Shown here in pieces: positions 6,510 to 16,460 of a stretch of DNA of 64,000 nucleotides (its first letter is position 1; the number at the start of each line of letters is the position of its first letter). The notes beneath the pieces are model-generated. The model saw only the letters and a list, made by a program, of their open reading frames with translations, searched no databases and was not told the origin of the DNA. This DNA is from an uncultured Alphaproteobacteria bacterium (lineage in GTDB: Bacteria > Pseudomonadota > Alphaproteobacteria > UBA8366 > GCA-2717185), in contig CALSRA010000003.1 of the NCBI GenBank assembly GCA_943788635.1, positions 31,203 through 95,202 of the forward strand, read 5' to 3'. The translations under genes were made by a program, and so were the position numbers.

Positions 6510-8837
6510 GTGTTATCACGCAATCTGGAAGAAAGCCTTCACCGTGCCATCGCTCTCGCGAGCGAACGGCGGCATGAATATGCAACACTGGAACATCTGT
6601 TGTTCGCCTTGAGCGACGACCGGGACGCCGTAGCCGTACTTCGCGCCTGTGGTGTCGATATCGATCGGTTGCGAAAGGATCTGGGCGAATATCTCGACGG
6701 CGAACTGGAAATGCTCGTTGCGGATTTTGTCGAGGACCCGAAACCCACCGCCGGCTTTCAGCGCGTTCTACAGCGCGCCGCAATCCACGTGCAGTCGTCA
6801 GGTCGCGAAGAAGTGACCGGGGCGAATGTGCTGGTCGCGATGTTCTCGGAGCGCGAGAGCCATGCCGTCTATTACCTGCAGGCGCAGGACATGACGCGCT
6901 TCGATGCGGTTAACTACATCAGTCACGGTATTGCCAAAGTCCCCAGTGAAACGGCGACGCGGAACGTCAACGGTGCGGACGAGGACGCGGCGGCGGAGAA
7001 GGTGAACAAGAAGGGCAACGAGGCGCTCGAAGCCTATTGCGTGAACCTTAATGAAAAAGCGAAGGCGGGCAAGATTGATCCGCTGATCGGCCGCAAGAAG
7101 GAAATTGACCGGACCATTCAGGTTCTGTGCCGGCGGACGAAGAACAATCCGCTGTATGTCGGTGATCCGGGCGTGGGCAAAACGGCGATTGCCGAAGGCC
7201 TGGCCAAACGCATTGTCGAACTCGATGTGCCGGTCGTCCTGCAGGAGGCCACGATTCATTCGCTGGATATGGGCGCGCTTCTGGCCGGAACCCGGTATCG
7301 GGGCGATTTCGAGGAACGGTTGAAAGCCGTCATGAAGGAACTCGAGGAAGAAGAGGGCGCGATCCTCTTCATCGATGAAATCCATACGGTGATCGGTGCC
7401 GGCGCAACCAGTGGCGGGGCCATGGATGCCTCCAACCTGCTGAAGCCTGCGTTGCAGAGCGGGACGCTGAAATGCATCGGGTCGACGACCTACAAGGAAT
7501 TCCGCAACCATTTCGAAAAGGATCGCGCGCTGGTGCGGCGTTTCCAGAAGATTGACGTCGCCGAACCGTCAATCCCGGATACGATCAAGATTCTCCAAGG
7601 TCTGAAACCTTATTACGAAGAGCACCACAAGGTCCGCTATACCAACGAGGCGCTGAAGACGGCGGTCGACCTGGCGGCGAAGTACATCAATGATCGCAAA
7701 CTGCCGGACAAGGCGATCGACGTTATCGATGAAGTCGGCGCGTCCCAGATGCTGTTGCCGGAATCGAAGCGCAAGAAAACCATCGGCGTACGCGATGTCG
7801 AAGCGGTCGTCGCCATGATGGCGCGGATCCCGCCGAAGCAGGTATCCCGCAACGACCGCGAGTCCCTGCAAACCATGGAACGCGATCTGAAGACCGTTGT
7901 CTTCGGTCAGGACGCGGCGATCGATGCATTGACGACGGCGATCAAGATGTCGCGGGCCGGCCTGCGCGAGCCCGAAAAGCCGATCGGCAGCTATCTGTTC
8001 TCGGGGCCGACCGGTGTCGGCAAGACCGAAGTCGCGCGTCAACTCGCGAATACGATGGGCGTCGAACTGACGCGGTTCGATATGTCGGAATACATGGAAC
8101 GCCACAGCATCTCCCGATTGCTCGGCGCGCCTCCGGGCTATGTCGGGTTCGATCAGGGTGGGTTGCTGACCGATGCAATCGACCAGCATCCTCATTGCGT
8201 CCTGCTGCTGGATGAAATCGAAAAAGCGCATCCGGATCTGTTCAACGTGCTGCTGCAGGTCATGGATCATGGCAAGCTGACGGATCACAACGGGAAATCC
8301 GTTGATTTTCGTAATGTCGTCCTGATCATGACCACGAATGCGGGGGCCGCCGACCTGGCTAAGCCGGTCATGGGCTTTGCGCGCGAAGAACGGGTTGGTG
8401 AGGACGAGGAAGCGATCAGCCGCATGTTCTCGCCTGAATTCCGCAACCGTCTCGATGCGGTCATTTCCTTTGCGGCGCTGTCGCAGGAGGTCGTGCATCG
8501 GGTTGTCGACAAGTTCATCATGGAGTTGGAAGGCCAGCTTGCCGACCGGAACGTGACAATCGAATTGACCGACGAATCGCGCGCCTGGCTGGGCCGCAAG
8601 GGCTACGATCCGAAATTCGGCGCCCGGCCATTGGGACGGGTCATCCAGGAAAACATCAAGAAACCGCTGGCCGAAGAACTGTTGTTCGGCAAGCTGGCCA
8701 AGGGTGGTGTGGTCAAAGTGCTGCTGGTGGATGACAAGCTGGATTTCGAACTGACCAGTGCGGGTGGCCGTCGCGATACCGGCGAAGATGGCGGTGAAAA
8801 GCCGAGCCCGAAGGTTCCCGAACTCCTCGAAGGCTGA
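6510..8837 (+). CDS. clpA: ATP-dependent Clp protease ATP-binding subunit ClpA
   Basis: Clp N-domain, two AAA+ modules ([16 protein letters not shown]), no ClpB coiled-coil, directly after clpS. Confidence 0.97.
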
Positions 8838-8868
8838 GTACCGGCAGCTTGGCTGCCGGTCGGGCCTG

Positions 8869-9969
8869 ATGCAGGAACTATCGTTTTCGTTCAGGCCGGC
8901 GGGCCCTGTTTCGGCGCTGGAACCGTTTTGGCGCGACCTTGAATCCCGTTCCGATTGCAGTTTTTTCCTGTCCTGGGACTGGATCGGCTGCTGGCTTGAT
9001 GAAATCGACGCCAGCCCCATTCTGGTTGAGGGCCGCGCGGGTGATGCGGTGGTGGTGCTCGGCGTGTTCTGCCCCGGCGCCGCGCGGCCATTTGCCATCC
9101 GTTCGGTTCGCCTGCAGGAAACCGGGCAGGCAGAGGTGGATTCACTCTATATCGAATATAACGGCTTGCTGATCGACCGGCGCTGGGCCGGTATTGGCGA
9201 GCGGCTTTGCATCGAAGCCCTGTTGGCCGAAGGCGCGCGGCGGGGACGCGCCGGGTGGGACCGTATCGTCATCGGTGCGGCTGCCGAACCGGTGGTGGCT
9301 GCGCTGCGGGATGTGCAGCCCAAACCACGGCTGGAGGCGCCAATCCAGACCAGCCATGTCGATCTGGCGGCAATCCGCGCCGCCGGTGGGGATTATCTGG
9401 CGGCTATCAGTGCCAATACCCGCTAACAGATCCGCCGGGCGCGCCGGCTGTACGAAGCGCGCGGGCCGCTGACGCTCGACGTGGCCCGGGATGGCGAAGA
9501 GGCGCAGGCATATTTCGATGCGTTGCGCGTGCTGCATCAGGCGACCTGGACGGCGCGTGGCCGGCCGGGCGCGTTTGCATCCCCGTTCTTCGTGCGCTTT
9601 CACCGCCATCTGATCGCGTCCGGCCTGCCGAATGATGCGGTGGAGCTGGTGCGGATTTCAGCGGGGGGCGCGCCGGTCGCCTATCTGTATAATTTCCTGT
9701 ATCGCGGCACGGTCTATTACTACGCCAGCGGTATTGCGTACGAGCCGGACAACAAGGCCCGTCCGGGGCTGCTCAGCCATGCGATGTGTATCGCGCATCA
9801 TCTGGCGCGCGGCGACGACTGTTATGATTTCATGGCCGGCGCCGCCCGCTACAAGGAAAGCCTTGGCACGCCGGGGCCGGCAATCAGTACAATCATCGTG
9901 GAACGGGCCGGAATCCGGTCAATGCTGGCCGGGGCCATGCGCGGTTTGCGCGAAGGTATTCGCGGTTAG
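8869..9969 (+). pseudogene. GNAT family acetyltransferase (CelD/BcsL-like) interrupted by an in-frame TAA at 9424-9426
   Basis: ORFs 8758..9426 and 9481..9969 are in the same frame; read-through gives ISANTR*QIRRARRLYE; C-terminal YDFMAGAARYKESLG fits this family. Confidence 0.8.
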
Positions 9970-11609: not shown

Positions 11610-11691
11610 CACCCCTCCAGACCGCCCCCCGCCGCCATCAACGCGCCACGCGGGCGCGAATGGGGCGAATAGGGCGAAAAGATCGTCATCC

Positions 11692-11951
11692 GTTTGCATT
11701 CATTGGCATCACTATACATCCACAGCACCCGCCCGGCGGCGCGAAAAGTTGCAAATCATGCGCATCGATTGTCATCCATTGACATTGGTTGTCATCGCCG
11801 CATTTTCCAGCCGTCGCGCGGAACCGGCGCGGGGTGGCTGGTGGAAAACACGGATAGTATTGGCATCGATTGGCATTCCTGTGCATTGCCTTCGTGGCGA
11901 TGGGCGCGCGGCTACGCGAAATGATTGGCTTTTATTGGCATTCATTGGCAT
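11692..11951 (-). repeat. Five dispersed copies of an 18-bp motif (consensus ATGCCAATSRATGCCAAT on the minus strand)
   Basis: Copies at 11692-11709, 11758-11775, 11778-11795, 11859-11876 and 11934-11951. Confidence 0.75.
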
Positions 11952-12383
11952 TTCCGCCGCCGAACGCGGTTGTTGTTCTGGTTCCGGCGCGAGATCGGCC
12001 ATGCCGGCGACCGCCGACAGCATCGCACCGTAATCCGGCCGGGCCCGCCGCGCGCCACGGCGCCCTTCGGGGACCATCCCGGTCACCCGCAGCTGCATCG
12101 CCACGGCGCGCAGGGCGGTATTGAACTGGTTATGCTCGATGACGCGTTCATAGATGACCTGCAGCCGCGCCAGCACCGCGCTCACATCCCCGCACTGCTG
12201 CTCGGCAACCGCGTCGCGCAGCTCGGCGATCCGCAACTGGATATCGGGCCGCGCCAGCAACCGGCAGGCCTGCGCCGCCGCATTGCTTTCCCCATACCCC
12301 GCCGCCAGCGCCGCCGCACGGCCCACGGGCCGGCGGACATATTCCCGGCAGAACCGCTCATGCCGCTCGTTCGGCTTGTTCAT
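11772..12383 (-). CDS. Orphan terminase small subunit-like protein
   Basis: N-terminus RHERFCREY...AALAAGY...AQACRLLARPDIQLRIAEL matches the TerS helix-turn-helix pattern; GGGAGG RBS; no large terminase or capsid genes nearby. Confidence 0.78.
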   Translation of the reverse strand: MNKPNERHERFCREYVRRPVGRAAALAAGYGESNAAAQACRLLARPDIQLRIAELRDAVAEQQCGDVSAVLARLQVIYERVIEHNQFNTALRAVAMQLRVTGMVPEGRRGARRARPDYGAMLSAVAGMADLAPEPEQQPRSAAEMPMNANKSQSFRVAARPSPRRQCTGMPIDANTIRVFHQPPRAGSARRLENAAMTTNVNG

Positions 12384-12408
12384 ATCCTTGTCCTCCCCTG
12401 AAAGAAAG

Positions 12409-12464
12409 AGAAAATAGGAATGTAAGCCATTAACGGGCTAAAAGTCAATAAATTCCTATATTCT
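12409..12464 (-). promoter_or_regulatory. Sigma70-like promoter of the terS-like gene bracketed by a 13-bp inverted repeat
   Basis: Minus-strand TTGACT (12443-12448), 18-bp spacer, TACATT (12419-12424); arms AGAAAATAGGAAT (12409-12421) and ATTCCTATATTCT (12452-12464), one mismatch. Confidence 0.6.
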
Positions 12465-12576
12465 GTCGAGGCTACATTATATCTAACTGGAACAAAATAA
12501 CTTCCTTAAGTAGAAATTCTCGACAATAGTACTAACTATATTTTGAAAACAAACTTATAGCTGCGTATCATAGACT

Positions 12577-13608
12577 ATGATTATTGAAGGAAAGTATTTC
12601 GATGAAATATTACGCAAGCTCTACGGAGAGCTTAGAAAGAGCACTGACACTTTCAATGCAAGCAAGGGCAAAGGCCAAGACCTTCTCGGGCCAAAAATCA
12701 TACTCAAAGAGCCGCTTGCCAGAATTAGCGCTACGGCAACACGAGGGCGATTAATCTCTGCGCTTGCAGAGTTTTGCTGGTATATGAGTGGGAGCGCAGA
12801 CTTAGATTTCATTCGATTTTATATACGCGATTATCCTCCCAAAGAAGCCACAGGATCAATTGAAGAGGCTTACGGTCCTCGGCTGATCGGCTCTGGTGAA
12901 TTTGGACAGTCGTACGACCAATTAGAACGAGTGATTTATCAACTTAAGAATAAGCCAGATACACGACGGGCCGTTATTTCGATTCTTCAAGCCAATGATC
13001 TTGAGCCTGAAAGAGCAGAGGCGCCGTGTACGGTAGCTTTGCAGTTCATTCGTCGACGCGGACGCTTGCACATGATCGCCATGATGCGATCTAATGATGC
13101 TTATCTGGGCTTTCCTCATGACGTGTTTTGCTTCACGATGATTCAAGAATTAATTGCTCGTTCCCTCGGTGTCCAAGTTGGTGACTACCATCATTTTGCA
13201 ACGAGTCTCCATCTATATGAGGAGGATGTGGATAGGGTTTCTAACTATTTGGGTGAAGGGTTTCAAAATCCTACGTTTGCTATGCCCAAAATGCCTAATG
13301 GCTGTCAGCGCGAAAACTTGCGTTTATTTCTCGAAGTCGAGAGATCTATAAGGGCTGGACATATAACTAAGGCTATAGAAATTAAACTGCCAACCTATTG
13401 GCGTGACCTGTCTCTTGTCCTTCTTCGCCATGCAGACGCGAAAATGAAAAGAGGGATGGGCGTGCTTGACGAAAATTTTTCCAATGTAACGAATGGATTT
13501 TACAAAAACTTCTTTATAAAGCGGCCAAGGGTGGCTTCAAAAAACCCAATCTTGCCAACGATTCAGGACAAACTAGATTTAGGTGATGAAAATGCCGGCC
13601 AGAATTAA
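12577..13608 (+). CDS. Thymidylate synthase-fold protein, probably a dCMP/CMP hydroxymethylase-like enzyme
   Basis: AEFCWYMSG, AYGPRL, PDTRRAV, catalytic PCT, MRSNDAYLGFPHD and SLHLY motifs; Asp at the E. coli ThyA Asn177 position. Confidence 0.88.
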   Translation: MIIEGKYFDEILRKLYGELRKSTDTFNASKGKGQDLLGPKIILKEPLARISATATRGRLISALAEFCWYMSGSADLDFIRFYIRDYPPKEATGSIEEAYGPRLIGSGEFGQSYDQLERVIYQLKNKPDTRRAVISILQANDLEPERAEAPCTVALQFIRRRGRLHMIAMMRSNDAYLGFPHDVFCFTMIQELIARSLGVQVGDYHHFATSLHLYEEDVDRVSNYLGEGFQNPTFAMPKMPNGCQRENLRLFLEVERSIRAGHITKAIEIKLPTYWRDLSLVLLRHADAKMKRGMGVLDENFSNVTNGFYKNFFIKRPRVASKNPILPTIQDKLDLGDENAGQN

Positions 13609-14526
13609 AAATAAAGTCAAATTTGAAAAAATATCCGTCCTTTTAGATGATGTTCCCAACGAATTGCTTCCACTCTCTGGATTAACTACCGCCGTACGGA
13701 AATCTGTTCTCGTCGGGCAATTAATCGATAGCATTCGTAGGATAGAATATCTTAGGGTAATTTCTGTTAGAGCAAAGTCGCCGAGTCTCCATACGCCTTA
13801 TTCTGGGAGTTTTGAGCCTTTTAGTGGTTCAGCATTGATGCATAAAACAGGACGAACTGACGATGCCTTTTGGCTAGTTTGCCTTGCCACTCACTTCGGC
13901 AAGCACAAGATTGACGGCTGGAACCTTACCGAAGATTTTTACGGTCGATTCGCGCAAGGGGGCATTTGGGAGTGGGCTGCTGCAAAAAAGGATCCAGATG
14001 CGGTTTCAATCTGGTTAGCGGCAGTCTATCCTCATATTACGAGTGTTGGGGCGCTCTAGGCGTTTCGGCAACCATCGTAAATTCGAAACCCTAAAGCCAG
14101 GATTAAAGGGTACTGGCCATGCTGTGAAAACCTACATCCAATGGATTGAACAGTATGGCTCCCATCAGGCTTTAATTGATAATGTACACAAACGGGTTGG
14201 GCAAAACCCCAAAGAGGTTTTCGCGTATCTTTATAAGGAACTCGACAAGGTTTCCAAGCTTGGGCGTCTCGGAAAATTTGATCTTTTGTGCAACCTGAGC
14301 AATCTTTTGATCGCGCCAATTTTACCGGACAACGCATATATCGCTGATCTCAACTGGCCCTAAAGCTGGCGCGAAATTACTATTCGGAAATCAATTGAAT
14401 GCTAAGAGTCTTGAGGCATCCTGCGTGAAATTAGCCGACCACCTTAATGTCAGCCCGCAGGTAATAGAGGATTCGTTGTGCAATTGGCAAAAAAGCCCGG
14501 ACAAATATATTTACTTTCGGGGTTGA
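13586..14526 (+). CDS. aGPT-Pplase clade 3-like protein (alpha-glutamyl/putrescinyl thymine pyrophosphorylase family, HhH-glycosylase-like fold); two frameshifts
   Basis: Removing one G at 14048-14051 and one base near 14349 gives a single ~310-aa ORF with AFWLVCLATHFGKH, RRFGNHRKFETL, LGRLGKFDLL, STGPKAGAKLLFG and IEDSLCNWQKSP; start overlaps the TS-like stop. Confidence 0.72.
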
Positions 14527-15617
14527 TCTGTCCAGCGGTATCGACGCTTTAGGTGCTGCATTTGGTTGAATCGGATGATTCCTTCATGTTGGAGTTGTCC
14601 GACAATTAATCCCGGCGCGACCCCCAACTTTTTTTGCAAAGTTGATAATCAAAAATCTTGAGTTACTAAGTGATAAAAATTCTTCACGGTGCTCCATTGG
14701 TACAATTATACTAGCGGCGTATTCATTCGCTTCCTGTTCGCATTCATCTTCTTCCGTTTCCGAGCTTTCTAAAATAGGCATTTTATCGTAGTGATGTAAC
14801 AGATGTGCTATTTCATGAAACAATGTGAACCAAAATTGATCATCCGATAAATAGCGAAAGCTGAGTTGAATATGTGGGATGTTATTTGAAAAAATACGGA
14901 TTGCACCACTCGCAGTGCACCCAATAGGTGCTCTCACAATTGCAAATTTTACCCTGGCTGCAGCAAATAATTCTTTCAGTTTTGGCAAAAACAATTCAGG
15001 ACTTTTATACCATGTTAAGCGCCGAAAATGCCGAAGTTGGCTTCTTAGAACACTTGGTGACCATTTCGGCGACCTTATCGTGCTGTGTCTCAATCTCGCC
15101 TTGACGAAGCCACGCCGTCGTTTTTATCTCGCACGATGCGAATGATGTTGAGCGTCGATAGGCTGCATGTTGAAAGGTATTTTCATATCTTCCTTGCCAC
15201 TGCGCGAGTGATGAAACGCCAAAAAATGTTAAGCATTCCGTGATCTGCTCGTCCTTTGACCGTACCCTGTCAATCCACCCGAATTTCTGCATATCTCTTA
15301 TGAGGAAGCCGATTCAGAAGTTCGGCAAGGCTGTTAACATTGGCGTTCTCGGGCGATGCTATGCTGGCTCGGTAATCGTGTTCTCTTGCAAGCCAAAACG
15401 ATTCCGAAGCACCTAGAGTGGTTGCTAATTGATTCGCTAAGATTCTATCGATTGCGTGAACACCATCTAGAAGTTTCTGCGCCACGGCTAAAGGTCGCCC
15501 AATTTTATGAGCAAATTGCTCGATCGTCAGTTCTCGTTCTTCAAGGATAGTCAATATTGTGTTGCCGGGGGGGGATACCCAGTCAGGTTTTTCCATGATT
15601 TCGTCATCTAACATCAT
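14511..15617 (-). CDS. HigA-like HTH fused to an ImmA/IrrE (M78) metallopeptidase; three frameshifts
   Basis: N-terminal PDWVSPPGNTI xre-HTH, AWLRQGE, FWFTLFHEIAHLL (HExxH), EQEANEYA and C-terminal LGVAPGLIVGQLQH...LKRRYRW, after removing single extra bases near 15302, 15063-15065 and the A7 run at 14629-14635. Confidence 0.85.
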
Positions 15618-15912
15618 TGATCCCCATCACCTTTACTCGTCCTACCGTAGACCAGTCGTAGATGTTGCCATCTTCGGCAGCCGTATAGTTTGGGGCCATT
15701 AGAATCGAAATGAGATCCGGGACGGTAAGCGTACACAAATTTCCTTCGAAAATTACCTGACCTACCGGAAGCTCAAACACGTTACTTGCTGCCTGAATAT
15801 CAGAATGCCGTGCCTGCATAGAGACTGCTGCCTCTTTCCCCAAATACTTTATTGCAACAGAAGAGTGAAAGCAAATTTCTTGGAGGATTTGGGAGTTGTA
15901 TGAAATTAACAA
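15604..15912 (-). CDS. HigB-like (killer-suppression family) protein
   Basis: 102 aa, TTG start, pattern ISY...LQEIC...A.KYLG..AA...ARHSDIQAA.N..EL; stop overlaps the start of the HTH-IrrE gene in toxin-first order. Confidence 0.68.
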   Translation of the reverse strand: MLISYNSQILQEICFHSSVAIKYLGKEAAVSMQARHSDIQAASNVFELPVGQVIFEGNLCTLTVPDLISILMAPNYTAAEDGNIYDWSTVGRVKVMGINDVR

Positions 15913-15931
15913 AATTTTCTCTCTATACTGC

Positions 15932-15957
15932 CCAACTATACTTAAATTATTAGTTGG
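15932..15957. promoter_or_regulatory. Palindromic operator upstream of the higB-like gene
   Basis: CCAACTA-N12-TAGTTGG lying just downstream of a minus-strand TTGACC (15963-15968). Confidence 0.55.
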
Positions 15958-16460
15958 CGCAGGGTCAAGAGACGCTATTTCTTTCTAAAAGACCTTAACT
16001 AACCAGATTCGAACGGACAATACGCATTATTTTTCATTCTTTTTCTAGGCGTGCGATTGAGAGGGGGACGGGCAGTTTTGACGTTTACCTCGTCTCATAC
16101 CGTCTGTTCGGTTGTCAACTCTCGCTCCTTCGACACGCGGTCGAGGCCTTCAAAAATAATATCGATAGCATTGTCGTCGAATGGGCGCGTCTCGCCGCTG
16201 ATATCCGCTGTGCGCGGGGCGGATTCCTGCCCTAGGTGCAGGAATCCCGCGATCAATTTTACGGCGATAGTGCACTATTTTGGTCGTAATTCATTCTCCG
16301 TCAGGCGGTAGCTGGGGCGGACCTCGCGGAAGTGCCGGTTTCTCCCCGTCAAAACAATCCCCCCGGTTGATCTCCCCCACCCCCCCGCCGGTAAGCTTCG
16401 CGCGTCCCTTCGGGGGCGCTGTATCTTGTGACATTGTGACCATGGCTTCGGGGGAGGCGA

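Follow-up and report, generated by a model that had tools for sequence, protein, structure and literature searches.

A predicted deoxycytidylate hydroxymethylase linked to an aGPT-Pplase partner in a mobile bacterial gene cassette

Introduction

This article concerns a gene of the thymidylate synthase (ThyA) superfamily carried on a stretch of 64,000 nucleotides, referred to throughout as the window, from contig CALSRA010000003.1 of an uncultured alphaproteobacterial genome (assembly GCA_943788635.1). A first-pass annotation, made from the letters of the window, had proposed that the encoded protein is probably not a deoxythymidine monophosphate (dTMP) synthase. The analysis described here leads to the same view: the ThyA-like enzyme is very probably a cytosine-nucleotide enzyme and not a dTMP synthase, and its product is predicted from its active-site residues to be 5-hydroxymethyl-deoxycytidine monophosphate (5-hydroxymethyl-dCMP), an assignment that we regard as probable. 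The gene belongs to an uncharacterised, widely transferred module of four genes (five at some loci), in which its partner is a member of aGPT-Pplase clade 3 (hereafter Pplase3). The best explanation of the whole, a dCMP hydroxymethylase acting with its partner in a mobile conflict cassette, is one that we favour with some reserve.

These observations bear on annotation as well as on biology. More than 1000 proteins of the family (1056 at E up to 1e-10) are named "thymidylate synthase", and their specificity residues would point to dCMP as the substrate. The same Pplase catalytic motif is tied in the cassette to a cytosine-type hydroxymethylase with no kinase, from which a branch of DNA hypermodification directed at cytosine is predicted; its leaving-group chemistry may be new, and it may yield a DNA base that has not yet been seen. 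As a possible new system of defence or anti-restriction, the cassette is also compact and cloneable. No description of it was found in the literature searched; Iyer et al. (2013), the original account of the aGPT-Pplase clades, may mention it.

Sequence and Active Site of the ThyA-Like Enzyme

The gene and the active-site segments on which the assignment depends are listed below; codon n of the open reading frame (ORF) begins at 12577+3(n-1).

12577..13608, forward strand: ThyA-superfamily gene of 343 aa, predicted dCMP hydroxymethylase; PF00303 E 7.7e-28, best solved relative MilA.
12964..12969, forward strand: Arg130-Arg131 (Escherichia coli Arg126'-Arg127'); Arg130 aligns with T4 Arg123, and the BcmA-like protein has Lys there.
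13018..13032, forward strand: Glu148-Ala-Pro-Cys151-Thr152; the Leu143 site is acidic, the Cys is catalytic, and Thr stands for His147.
13087..13122, forward strand: RSNDAYLGFPHD; Arg171, Ser172 (deoxyribose-type), Asp174 (Asp169 site), Asp182 (Asn177 site).
13210..13218, forward strand: His212-Leu-Tyr214, the pair that binds the sugar 3'-OH; aligns with E. coli His207/Tyr209 and T4 His216/Tyr218.

The ORF is full length in comparison with its relatives and matches the Pfam family PF00303 at 97.8 bits (E 7.7e-28, cut-off 24.3), but it falls below the cut-off of all eight matching NCBIfam thymidylate-synthase equivalogs, the best score being 84.6 bits against 327. Among proteins of solved structure searched with HMMER in the PDB, the best relative is MilA (E 7.2e-41, residues 18-286), and the best ThyA follows at E 5e-20. 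A canonical ThyA (415.1 bits, profile 1-266) is encoded on another contig of the same genome (57 contigs, 84% complete), in which ThyX was not found. The low NCBIfam scores, the separate canonical ThyA, the proximity of MilA and the Asp at the position of Asn177 all uphold the proposal that the enzyme is probably not a dTMP synthase.

Translation of the window places RSNDAYLGFPHD (Arg171-Asp182) at 13087-13122, a catalytic Cys within an APCT motif (A149-P-C151-T152) at 13021-13032 and an intact HLY sugar-binding motif (H212-L-Y214) at 13210-13218, exactly where the first-pass annotation had read them. Its remark that PCT stands here for the PCH of true ThyA extends to the whole family, as Thr occupies the position in 77 of 77 relatives and His is found both in the ThyA of E. 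coli and in the canonical ThyA of this genome. The central claim was that the Asp of the first of these motifs aligns with Asn177 of E. coli ThyA. Alignments with reference sequences (E. coli K-12 ThyA, T4 gp42, PaMx11 gp51, the BcmA-like protein of a Priestia plasmid and the genome's own ThyA) bear this out, Asp182 corresponding to ThyA N177, to T4 gp42 D179 and to the MilA Asp. The segment Arg171-Asp182 is gap-free in HMMER pairwise alignments, in which Asp182 lies opposite the Asp of MilA ("gavsD") and the Asn of ThyA ("vpfN"). The alignment can be considered checked because the T4 residue numbers that it yields (Glu60, Arg123, Cys148, Ser169, Asp179, His216, and Tyr218) agree with those of the published T4 enzyme (PMC5175136).

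Fifteen active-site positions (58, 94, 126, 127, 143, 146, 147, 166-169, 173, 177, 207, and 209 in E. coli numbering) were compared across these proteins.

Window ThyA-like protein: E Y R R E C T R S N D G D H Y
T4 gp42: E Y R R D C T R S N D G D H Y
E. coli ThyA: differs at Leu143, His147, Cys168, Asn177
PaMx11 gp51: Asp143, Asn177
BcmA-like protein: Lys126, Ala167

The window protein is identical to T4 gp42 at 14 of the 15, and the remaining one, the Leu143 site, is Glu in the one and Asp in the other. The catalytic set of ThyA (Cys146, Arg166, Tyr94, Glu58, and His207/Tyr209) is present as C151, R171, Y99, E65, and H212/Y214, whereas Asn177, His147, and Leu143 are replaced in the window protein by Asp182, Thr152, and Glu148 and are replaced likewise in its relatives. 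The corresponding set of gp42 (Asp179, Cys148, Ser169, Arg123', Asp145, and His216/Tyr218) is matched throughout by D182, C151, S172, R130, E148, and H212/Y214. Neither the ribose pair of MilA (Ala176 and Lys133') nor the signature of 5-hydroxy-dCMP synthases (Asn at the Asp169 site) is matched, the window protein having Ser172 and Arg130 in the first case and Asp174 in the second. PaMx11 gp51, the ThyA homologue of a phage with a pathway initiated by 5-hydroxymethyldeoxyuridine (5-hmdU), is acidic at 143 but retains Asn at 177.

The functional meaning of these positions has been worked out elsewhere. Asp versus Asn sets cytosine versus uracil, and Ser/Arg versus Ala/Lys sets deoxyribose versus ribose; an A176S/K133R mutant of MilA has its preference reversed from cytidine monophosphate (CMP) to dCMP, and A176S by itself moves the preference to dCMP (PMC5175136). 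A bulky Leu143 keeps water out, Asp or Glu being found there in hydroxymethylases, MilA included, and Asn at the Asp169 site (D169N) occurs in every tested 5-hydroxy-dCMP synthase (PMC13326640). The window protein carries the full dCMP-hydroxymethylase signature and lacks those of dTMP synthases, of CMP-preferring enzymes and of 5-hydroxy-dCMP synthases, and the predicted product is therefore 5-hydroxymethyl-dCMP. The first-pass annotation had left the choice between a hydroxymethyl, methyl or hydroxy derivative of (d)CMP; a cytosine-nucleotide product is supported, and the residue signatures narrow the prediction to this one.

Predicted Fold and Nearest Characterised Relatives

The comparison of an AlphaFold model with the solved members of the superfamily, which the first-pass annotation had proposed as a check, was carried out with an AlphaFold2 model built from 68 sequences (predicted local distance difference test score, pLDDT, 88.7). 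Foldseek gave MilA as the top match (TMq 0.80, E 6.7e-26), with ThyAs at TMq ~0.52-0.56. Against 48,161 chains, VIA-align placed MilA first (Z 37.0, root-mean-square deviation [rmsd] 2.2, 303 aligned) and the dCMP hydroxylase of phage HY126 second (Z 24.0), followed by ThyAs at ~21-22 and the T4 dCMP hydroxymethylase at 17.8 (rmsd 2.9, 216 aligned); a Z of 8 was reached by seven chains only, all of the same superfamily. As modelled, the scaffold is MilA-like, down to the helical extension at the C terminus in which an LPxYW motif lies, and the specificity residues that it bears are T4-like. By sequence, T4 gp42 is 23% identical to the window protein and lies outside the best 60 of 125 PDB matches.

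T4 gp42 (dCMP hydroxymethylase, EC 2.1.2.8) is thus the counterpart of the window protein in its active site, with 14 of 15 residues shared, the 15th acidic in both, and the same reaction predicted. It differs in that it is without the ~100-aa helical C-terminal extension, in that the window protein is borne by bacteria and mobile elements, and in its company, since the dCTPase, deoxynucleoside monophosphate (dNMP) kinase and glucosyltransferase partners of the T4 enzyme are not seen in the cassette. MilA and BcmA, the CMP 5-hydroxymethylases of mildiomycin and bacimethrin synthesis, are the best match in both sequence and structure, share the LPxYW extension, and have in common with the cassette enzymes the Asp at the Asn177 site, an acidic Leu143 site and a Thr after the Cys. 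However, the cassette enzymes have Ser for Ala176 (77/77) and Arg for Lys133' (58/77), which predicts deoxyribose, and their partner is Pplase3 instead of an N-glycosidase of the MilB/BcmB type, with no biosynthetic cluster around them. A distant ThyA homologue on a plasmid of Priestia megaterium (locus L084) does lie in a bacimethrin-like cluster, which comprises a nucleoside 2-deoxyribosyltransferase, the thymidylate synthase homologue, a SAM methyltransferase and a HAD hydrolase; this is the only place where a nucleoside 2-deoxyribosyltransferase gene was seen. Another distant homologue, on a plasmid of Streptococcus salivarius (L088), has genes for an AAA ATPase, a protein of the PqqD family and a phosphotransferase after it.

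Conservation and Phylogeny of the ThyA-Like Family

With E up to 1e-10 as the limit, a search of a protein collection returned 1056 relatives. Identity to the window protein is 66-78% among the best 120, a 235-aa record of that protein itself excepted. Genome contigs were scanned separately; 103 loci were confirmed and the 80 best retained, and counts out of 80 loci below refer to these. Residues were counted in 77 ThyA-like ORFs, L002, L016, and L059 being omitted since their matches are not spanned by a single ORF. The Asp at the Asn177 site, Ser172, Asp174, Cys151, Thr152, His212, and Tyr214 are each present in 77 of 77. The Leu143 site is more variable (Glu in 60, Asp in 13, Ser in 3, and Asn in 1; acidic in 73/77), as is the Arg126' site, with Arg in 58 and Lys in 19. 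The pattern [DE]xPCT...RSND...G...D recurs in all 28 further homologues reached by way of the partner gene, the locus of a 29th (L121) ending before its ThyA-like gene. The specificity Asp is accordingly found in all 105 relatives examined (77 + 28) and is more than a chance occurrence. The window protein itself retains every column that is invariant among its relatives. One copy, at L016:6001-6956 in an uncultured member of the Rhodobacteraceae, looks decayed, with a ThyA-like gene in two overlapping tblastn pieces, a Pplase3 ORF of 251 aa and no M78 or helix-turn-helix (HTH) match.

In a quick tree, for which SH-aLRT supports alone are available, canonical ThyA is split from all other sequences (99), and the BcmA-like protein is not among the 80 rows of the cassette clade but outside it (89, not starred). 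The window gene belongs to a clade of 15 rows (100) in which Rhodobacterales, Sphingomonadales, Hyphomicrobiales, and Rhodospirillales are intermingled, and T4 gp42 stands on a very long branch.

Gene Order and Linkage of the Cassette

The other parts of the cassette in the window are as follows.

12400..16100, no strand: low-GC island with the whole cassette (3.7 kb); GC content 0.385-0.50 versus 0.59-0.70 in the flanks, 400-nt windows.
13583..14526, forward strand: aGPT-Pplase clade 3/ADDT gene; three frames here, with PF18746 in three pieces.
14511..15617, reverse strand: fused HTH-M78 (ImmA/IrrE-like) gene; four frame segments here, stop at 14511-14513.
15604..15912, reverse strand: small conserved ORF of 102 aa, overlapping the HTH-M78 start, of no known family; 73% identical to the ORF at locus L004.

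The ThyA-like gene is followed on the same strand by the Pplase3 gene, and the small ORF and fused HTH-M78 gene converge on this pair. The island is flanked by housekeeping genes with intact ORFs. When the 80 loci were searched by tblastn with the window pieces, the ThyA-like and Pplase3 genes were found at 80/80, the M78 domain at 78/80, and the HTH domain at 76/80, and 78 of the loci have Pplase3 as a single ORF of at least 300 aa. Linkage is equally close when approached from the partner, since the IMG/VR loci found through Pplase3 have the ThyA-like gene directly upstream in 27 of 28 cases, the 28th ending at a contig edge. In the class to which the window belongs, Pplase3 was found in two of 401 genomes; the sole other match, among 400 sampled genomes of the class, carries the whole cassette, again with the ThyA-like gene directly upstream. 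A Pfam scan revealed no kinase domain among the conserved cassette genes or among 92 flanking ORFs of 13 loci.

Two variants of the gene pair may be mentioned. A protein of 635 aa from one metagenome contig (P0121) is a candidate ThyA-like-Pplase3 fusion, or perhaps the read-through of two genes that overlap, with matches to PF00303, PF18746, and PF18724, and is 38% identical to the window protein over 94% of the latter. In a Bradyrhizobium chromosome, a Mutator-family transposase (L074:7089-8357, reverse strand; PF00872, E 9e-61) lies between the ThyA-like and Pplase3 genes.

The Pplase3 Partner

The window pieces of Pplase3 match PF18746 at profile positions 3-119, 119-217, and 218-279 (E 4e-29, 6.4e-27, and 4.2e-13), and tblastn with the intact 313-aa Pplase3 of L004 locates them in window frames +2, +3, and +1. 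In intact relatives the E value is ~1e-103 for PF18746 and ~1e-68 for PF18724 (ADDT), the family of the amino-acid:DNA transferases. An FGNHRK block and a C-terminal motif, Glu295-Asp296-x-x-Cys299-Asn-Trp-x-Lys-x-Pro, are invariant across 45 Pplase3 sequences, and the core of the latter is encoded in the window by the third of the three frames.

14467..14487, forward strand: Glu-Asp-Ser-Leu-Cys-Asn-Trp motif of Pplase3, third frame; E295, D296, C299, N300, and W301 invariant in the 45 relatives.

The only local match between the clade-3 profile and gp46 of phage PaMx11 is this motif, which falls on gp46 residues 237-251 and sets E295/D296/C299/W301 on E243/T244/C247/W249. In gp46, Cys247 is the proposed nucleophile for C6, and Glu243 and Thr244 hold a metal that contacts thymine O4 (PMC11472151). 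The Cys and the adjacent Glu are essential in M6 gp51 and ViI gp247 (PMC8989533). A model of the L004 Pplase3 (pLDDT 92.3) gives its best alignment with the same PaMx11 gp46 (Z 10.9, rmsd 4.3, 216 aligned) and reaches Z 7-9 with the HhH-GPD glycosylases Ogg, AlkA, Mag1, and AGOG; as modelled, Pplase3 has a helix-hairpin-helix fold like that of DNA glycosylases. Foldseek returned no match for the model at E up to 0.001, and no match was found between the Pplase3 profile and PDB sequences (best E 0.32).

Similarities can be drawn between the cassette and the thymidine hypermodification pathway of phages (PaMx11 gp51, gp49, and gp46), as in both a ThyA homologue that is acidic at the Leu143 site is linked to an aGPT-Pplase with the Glu...Cys...Trp arrangement. 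Pathways of the PaMx11 type consist of a deoxyuridine monophosphate (dUMP) hydroxymethylase, a 5-hmdU DNA kinase and an aGPT-Pplase/AADT belonging to clade 2. The cassette departs from this scheme in several respects: its ThyA homologue has Asp and not Asn at the specificity site, which would make the base cytosine; it has no kinase; its partner is of clade 3, and the metal ligand Thr244 of gp46 is replaced in it by Asp; and it resides in bacterial chromosomes, plasmids, and prophage-like contigs, not in lytic phages, 50,697 phage records having given no tblastn match, and adds an HTH-M78 regulator. The first-pass annotation had further held that the partner, although named for thymine, would act in a cytosine pathway. 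PaMx11 serves as a control that supports this view, as the partner family there acts on a uracil derivative and the linked ThyA homologue has Asn.

Genomic Context and Mobility

The cassette is found at the 80 genome loci, on 28 contigs of the viral collection and on plasmids, and spans at least eight phyla. The flanks of 13 of the 80 loci (the 92 ORFs mentioned above) were scanned with Pfam, and genes of defence or mobility were identified next to the cassette. They include, at L006, a type I restriction system with ArdC, at L009 Shedu SduA together with a C5 methylase, and Mrr-type nucleases (L038 and L072), accompanied at L038 by a UvrD-helicase and OLD-TOPRIM pair that is Gabija-like. Relaxase and serine recombinases flank the cassette at L004 and L010, an integrase at L024, a large terminase at L005 and an ISL3 transposase at L019. 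The plasmids include those of Pantoea agglomerans and Leptospira interrogans, and the plasmid-borne cassette genes appear in RefSeq as "thymidylate synthase", "hypothetical protein" and "ImmA/IrrE family metallo-endopeptidase". Mrr-type restriction genes were considered as a core component and rejected, being present at only four to five of the 80 loci. No attachment-site repeats or tRNA were found at the borders of the window island.

The defence and mobility genes in the flanks, the plasmids and the mixed-order tree clade together argue for horizontal transfer and for a part played in conflicts among bacteria, phages, and mobile elements. That the cassette serves in phage-host or mobile-element conflict is, on this evidence, somewhat more to be believed than doubted. 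A related precedent is an E. coli defence system with a thymidylate-synthase domain that was validated in the DefensePredictor study (Science 2026, PMC13092281); it differs from the cassette in combining the thymidylate synthase with a dNMP kinase, a helical domain of 5-hmdU kinases and an NMAD domain. The same study lists an aGPT-Pplase plus HTH system among its predicted, unvalidated defence systems (PMC13092281), which might be the present cassette. No entry for a PF18746, PF18724 or "aGPT-Pplase" domain was found in the supplements searched.

Proposed Pathway and Alternative Explanations

From the residues, fold, linkage, and context described above, we infer a substrate, a product, a reaction for the partner, a mode of regulation and a biological role as follows. 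The ThyA-like enzyme would provide the first, folate-dependent step of the cassette pathway: Cys151 would attack C6 of dCMP, Asp182 would read the N3/N4 edge of the cytosine, Ser172 and Arg130' would exclude ribonucleotides, and Glu148, at the water-excluding Leu143 site, would let water quench the exocyclic methylene to give 5-hydroxymethyl-dCMP. Pplase3 would then attack C6 of 5-hydroxymethylcytosine (5hmC) and swap the hydroxyl for another group without a kinase step, its substrate being most likely in DNA, after incorporation of the nucleotide. The convergent operon of the small ORF and HTH-M78 gene may switch the module on under stress or infection, and the cassette would thereby serve either to defend the cell or to protect the DNA of the element that carries it.

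Whether the partner acts on 5hmC in DNA is finely balanced, with a slight lean towards doubt, and action on free nucleotides is its main rival. More tentative is a fully specified form of kinase-independent cytosine hypermodification, in which 5-hydroxymethyl-dCMP would be built into DNA, Cys299 would attack, and an amine, amino acid or thiol would replace the hydroxyl to yield an undescribed base, with Asp296 reading N4 and HTH-M78 inducing the whole as an anti-phage or anti-restriction weapon; in all its parts this is rather unlikely. As part of such a scheme, the Asp296 at the Thr244 site would be another instance, in a different fold, of the Asn-to-Asp exchange that the ThyA homologue shows. 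C5-cytosine methyltransferases can couple thiols to 5hmC in DNA without prior activation, and for this reason Cys-at-C6 chemistry on an unphosphorylated hydroxymethyl group is chemically plausible.

Several observations weigh against the explanation of the cassette as a dCMP hydroxymethylase with a DNA-acting partner in a conflict module. To our knowledge, all characterised aGPT-Pplase enzymes act on thymidine derivatives and require a 5-hmdU DNA kinase to supply the leaving group, and the cassette is without the kinase that these known members of the family need. The T4 pathway partners (dCTPase, dNMP kinase, and glucosyltransferase) are likewise not seen in it. Overall, the ThyA-like protein is far nearer to MilA, a CMP enzyme, than to gp42 (Z 37.0 versus 17.8, with 23% identity to gp42), and 19 of the 77 relatives have the MilA residue, Lys, at the Arg126' site. 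The match of the Pplase3 motif to gp46 is not significant alone (E 0.07-0.18, two-sequence search), and the Pplase3 model also matches DUF2419, a queuine salvage enzyme that cleaves mononucleotides (Z 9.0, rmsd 5.3, 211 aligned). No tblastn match of Pplase3 was found in 50,697 phage records, PADLOC was without a model for the ThyA-like or Pplase3 genes when the window pieces were scanned, and the partner and regulator are frameshifted in this assembly, such that the module may be dead here.

The alternative with the greatest claim is a weapon directed at the nucleotide pool, in which dCMP (and methylenetetrahydrofolate) would be drained to 5-hydroxymethyl-dCMP and Pplase3 would convert or cleave the mononucleotide, leaving the phage starved of deoxycytidine triphosphate or poisoned and its DNA unmodified. 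The defence-island and mobile context would suit it equally, neither a dNMP kinase nor a dCTPase is present in the cassette, the candidate ThyA-like-Pplase3 fusion would suit the hand-over of a substrate, the fold of the partner includes the mononucleotide N-glycosidase DUF2419 (Z 9.0), and both MilA and the BcmA-like enzyme have a nucleotide N-glycosidase as partner (PMC5175136). It is unlikely all the same, given that the partner keeps the Cys/Glu motif of a DNA-acting transferase and has that DNA-bound enzyme as its best structural match, that a G-R hairpin with invariant G227/R228/F232 appears to resemble a DNA-binding helix-hairpin-helix, and that 17/80 loci add a protein with motifs recalling the uracil-DNA glycosylase (UDG) superfamily, although this last is a lead only. 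A secondary-metabolite enzyme of the MilA/BcmA type, hydroxymethylating CMP so that the partner frees 5-hydroxymethylcytosine for an antimetabolite such as bacimethrin or mildiomycin, would account for MilA being the best match by sequence and model, LPxYW extension included, and for the Lys at the Arg126' site in 19/77 relatives. The Ser at the Ala176 site in 77/77 makes it improbable, as A176S alone favours dCMP in MilA (PMC5175136), and so do the flanks, which are of defence and mobility and not biosynthetic; moreover, the cassette lacks the 2-deoxyribosyltransferase-type glycosidase, methyltransferase, and tailoring genes that the Priestia plasmid cluster possesses, and the BcmA-like protein lies outside the cassette clade of the quick tree (89, not starred).

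The remaining alternatives concern the ThyA-like enzyme itself. The Asp alone leaves the product unfixed, all three C5 chemistries being known in the superfamily (PMC13326640), and the second-best structural match is the HY126 dCMP hydroxylase (Z 24.0), so that dCMP might instead be turned into 5-methyl-dCMP by a methylase or 5-hydroxy-dCMP by a flavin-dependent hydroxylase. Another C5 product is nonetheless a shade less probable again than a secondary-metabolite role: the Asp169 site is Asp in 77/77 and Asn in all tested 5-hydroxy-dCMP synthases, and the acidic Leu143 site of 73/77 is a correlate of hydroxymethyl and not of methyl products (PMC13326640). Least probable of all is a working thymidylate synthase kept as a second or back-up copy. 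Relatives do bear that name in public records, and the fold, the catalytic Cys and the equivalents of Arg166, Tyr94, and Glu58 are intact; but Asn177 has become Asp, His147 Thr, and Leu143 Glu, all eight NCBIfam equivalog cut-offs are far from reached, the genome has its canonical ThyA elsewhere, and this gene, together with its fixed partner, is part of an island that moves horizontally.

Extra Bases in the Assembly

In this assembly the Pplase3 gene is spread over three frames and the HTH-M78 gene over four segments, and tblastn traces the breaks to five single extra bases. Among the runs listed, 20 from 12 marine and estuarine metagenome studies hold near-identical DNA, and Logan contigs were compared from three DNA runs of three studies (X1, X2, and X6) and one RNA-library run (X12).

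14048: extra base 1, which lies in a run of G and shifts the Pplase3 frame; relatives are without it, and it is omitted in X1, X2, X6, and X12.
14349: extra base 2, shifts the Pplase3 frame; omitted in X1, X2, and X12, the site lying outside X6 coverage.
14621: extra base 3, which lies in a run of C and shifts the HTH-M78 frame; omitted in X1, X2, and X6.
15064: extra base 4, shifts the HTH-M78 frame; omitted in X1, X2, X6, and X12.
15302: extra base 5, shifts the HTH-M78 frame; omitted in X1, X2, and X6.

The bases are absent wherever the contigs cover them (5/5 in X1, 5/5 in X2, 4/4 in X6, and 3/3 in X12), and Pplase3 and HTH-M78 are therefore intact in the populations of the public runs; the ThyA-like gene and small ORF are intact in both the assembly and the public contigs. 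X6 is without one further base, at 15567. Either errors of assembly or lesions specific to the strain would account for the five extra bases. If they are real, the cassette would be a decaying remnant in this genome only, with a dead partner and regulator and a ThyA-like gene that is silent or drifting, a situation that would not compete with any of the readings of the cassette at large. Five frameshifts in two genes, all lying in the 2.0 kb that those two occupy and none in the 1.3 kb taken up by the remaining pair, amid flanking housekeeping ORFs that appear intact, speak for decay. It is rather unlikely, however, since contigs of four runs from three studies, at least 99% alike, are without exactly these bases where covered; all five are +1 insertions and three stand in short homopolymer runs, which suits assembly error; the chance of all five falling in two genes is ~0.05-0.08 when estimated from lengths; and the ThyA-like protein retains every invariant column. 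Metatranscriptome contigs of X12, at 99% identity or above, cover parts of all four genes (12540-13397, 13980-14418, 14968-15173, and 15608-15902). This coverage is no more than a hint of transcription in the sea and, DNA carry-over being possible, is not used here as evidence of expression.

Regulator, Small Reading Frame, and Optional Fifth Gene

The HTH-M78 pieces of the window, aligned by tblastn with the intact 362-aa protein of L004, match Peptidase_M78 in Pfam at E 5.3e-10 and a HigA-like HTH at E 1.9e-4. The two domains form one fused ORF of ~355-417 aa at 75 of the 76 loci that have both parts, and relatives are named "ImmA/IrrE family metallo-endopeptidase" in RefSeq. PADLOC models matched are PD-Lambda-2_B (5.4e-15), RmrA and CapP (2e-07). 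Regulators of the ImmA/IrrE type respond to DNA damage. In having an M78 domain together with an Xre/HigA-like HTH, the cassette protein is akin to the ImmR/ImmA and CapH/CapP regulators, but its domains are fused (~360 aa), a small ORF precedes it, and it is convergent to the enzyme genes.

At the position of the small ORF, 73 of 76 loci have an ORF of at least 70 aa, 70 of which cluster with that of the window. No Pfam match was obtained for ten homologues at E up to 1. A guess that it encodes a HigB/RelE-like toxin was dropped, there being no Pfam match and, in the Atlas, only unnamed or beta-helix clusters sharing few features. A CTTGACC box lies ~55 nt upstream of its start (window ~15965-15975, reverse strand) and in the same place in most close relatives (L002-L012), and could be the -35 element of the regulator operon. 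A comparison of 9-mers across 14 close loci revealed no operator shared by both operons, the TTGACC box being upstream of the small ORF only, and a promoter scan found sites no more often than in shuffled sequence (10 versus 6.9 +/- 2.8).

An optional gene of ~266 aa stands between the two enzymes at 17 of the 80 loci (L018, L019, L023, L028, L031, L034, L037, L041, L042, L051, L059, L061, L070, L072, L077, L078, and L079), and it was also noted at L095, L096, L108, L109, and L087:5020-5823. Its product has three strongly conserved motifs, G[LI]NPS[ND]REF, ACHLDL[IV]P[YF]AT, and LG[YF]NHN[LI]QSS. Neither Pfam (six members) nor PHROG (three members) gave a match, and the best PDB hit by profile, a retron reverse transcriptase at E 0.0044, was judged to be due to chance. 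G[LI]NPS and HN[LI]QSS are, we presume, reminiscent of motifs of the UDG superfamily, and the nearest named Atlas cluster has UDG in 29% of its members (score 0.92), both of which are leads only. Were the protein a DNA glycosylase, this would argue that the cassette works on DNA.

Other Observations in the Window

Two ORFs in the same frame at 8758-9426 and 9481-9969 (forward strand) are separated by a stop; the second matches Acetyltransf_6 (GNAT) only from profile position 25 onwards and the first matches no family, and they may be one gene split by the in-frame stop or two genes. The island is bordered by an orphan ORF resembling a terminase small subunit.

11772-12383, reverse strand: terminase-small-subunit-like ORF; PF03592 E 3.5e-11.

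Five imperfect direct repeats of ~36 nt, built on TTG(G/A/T)CAT units, lie at 11674-11951, just upstream of and inside the 3' part of this ORF.

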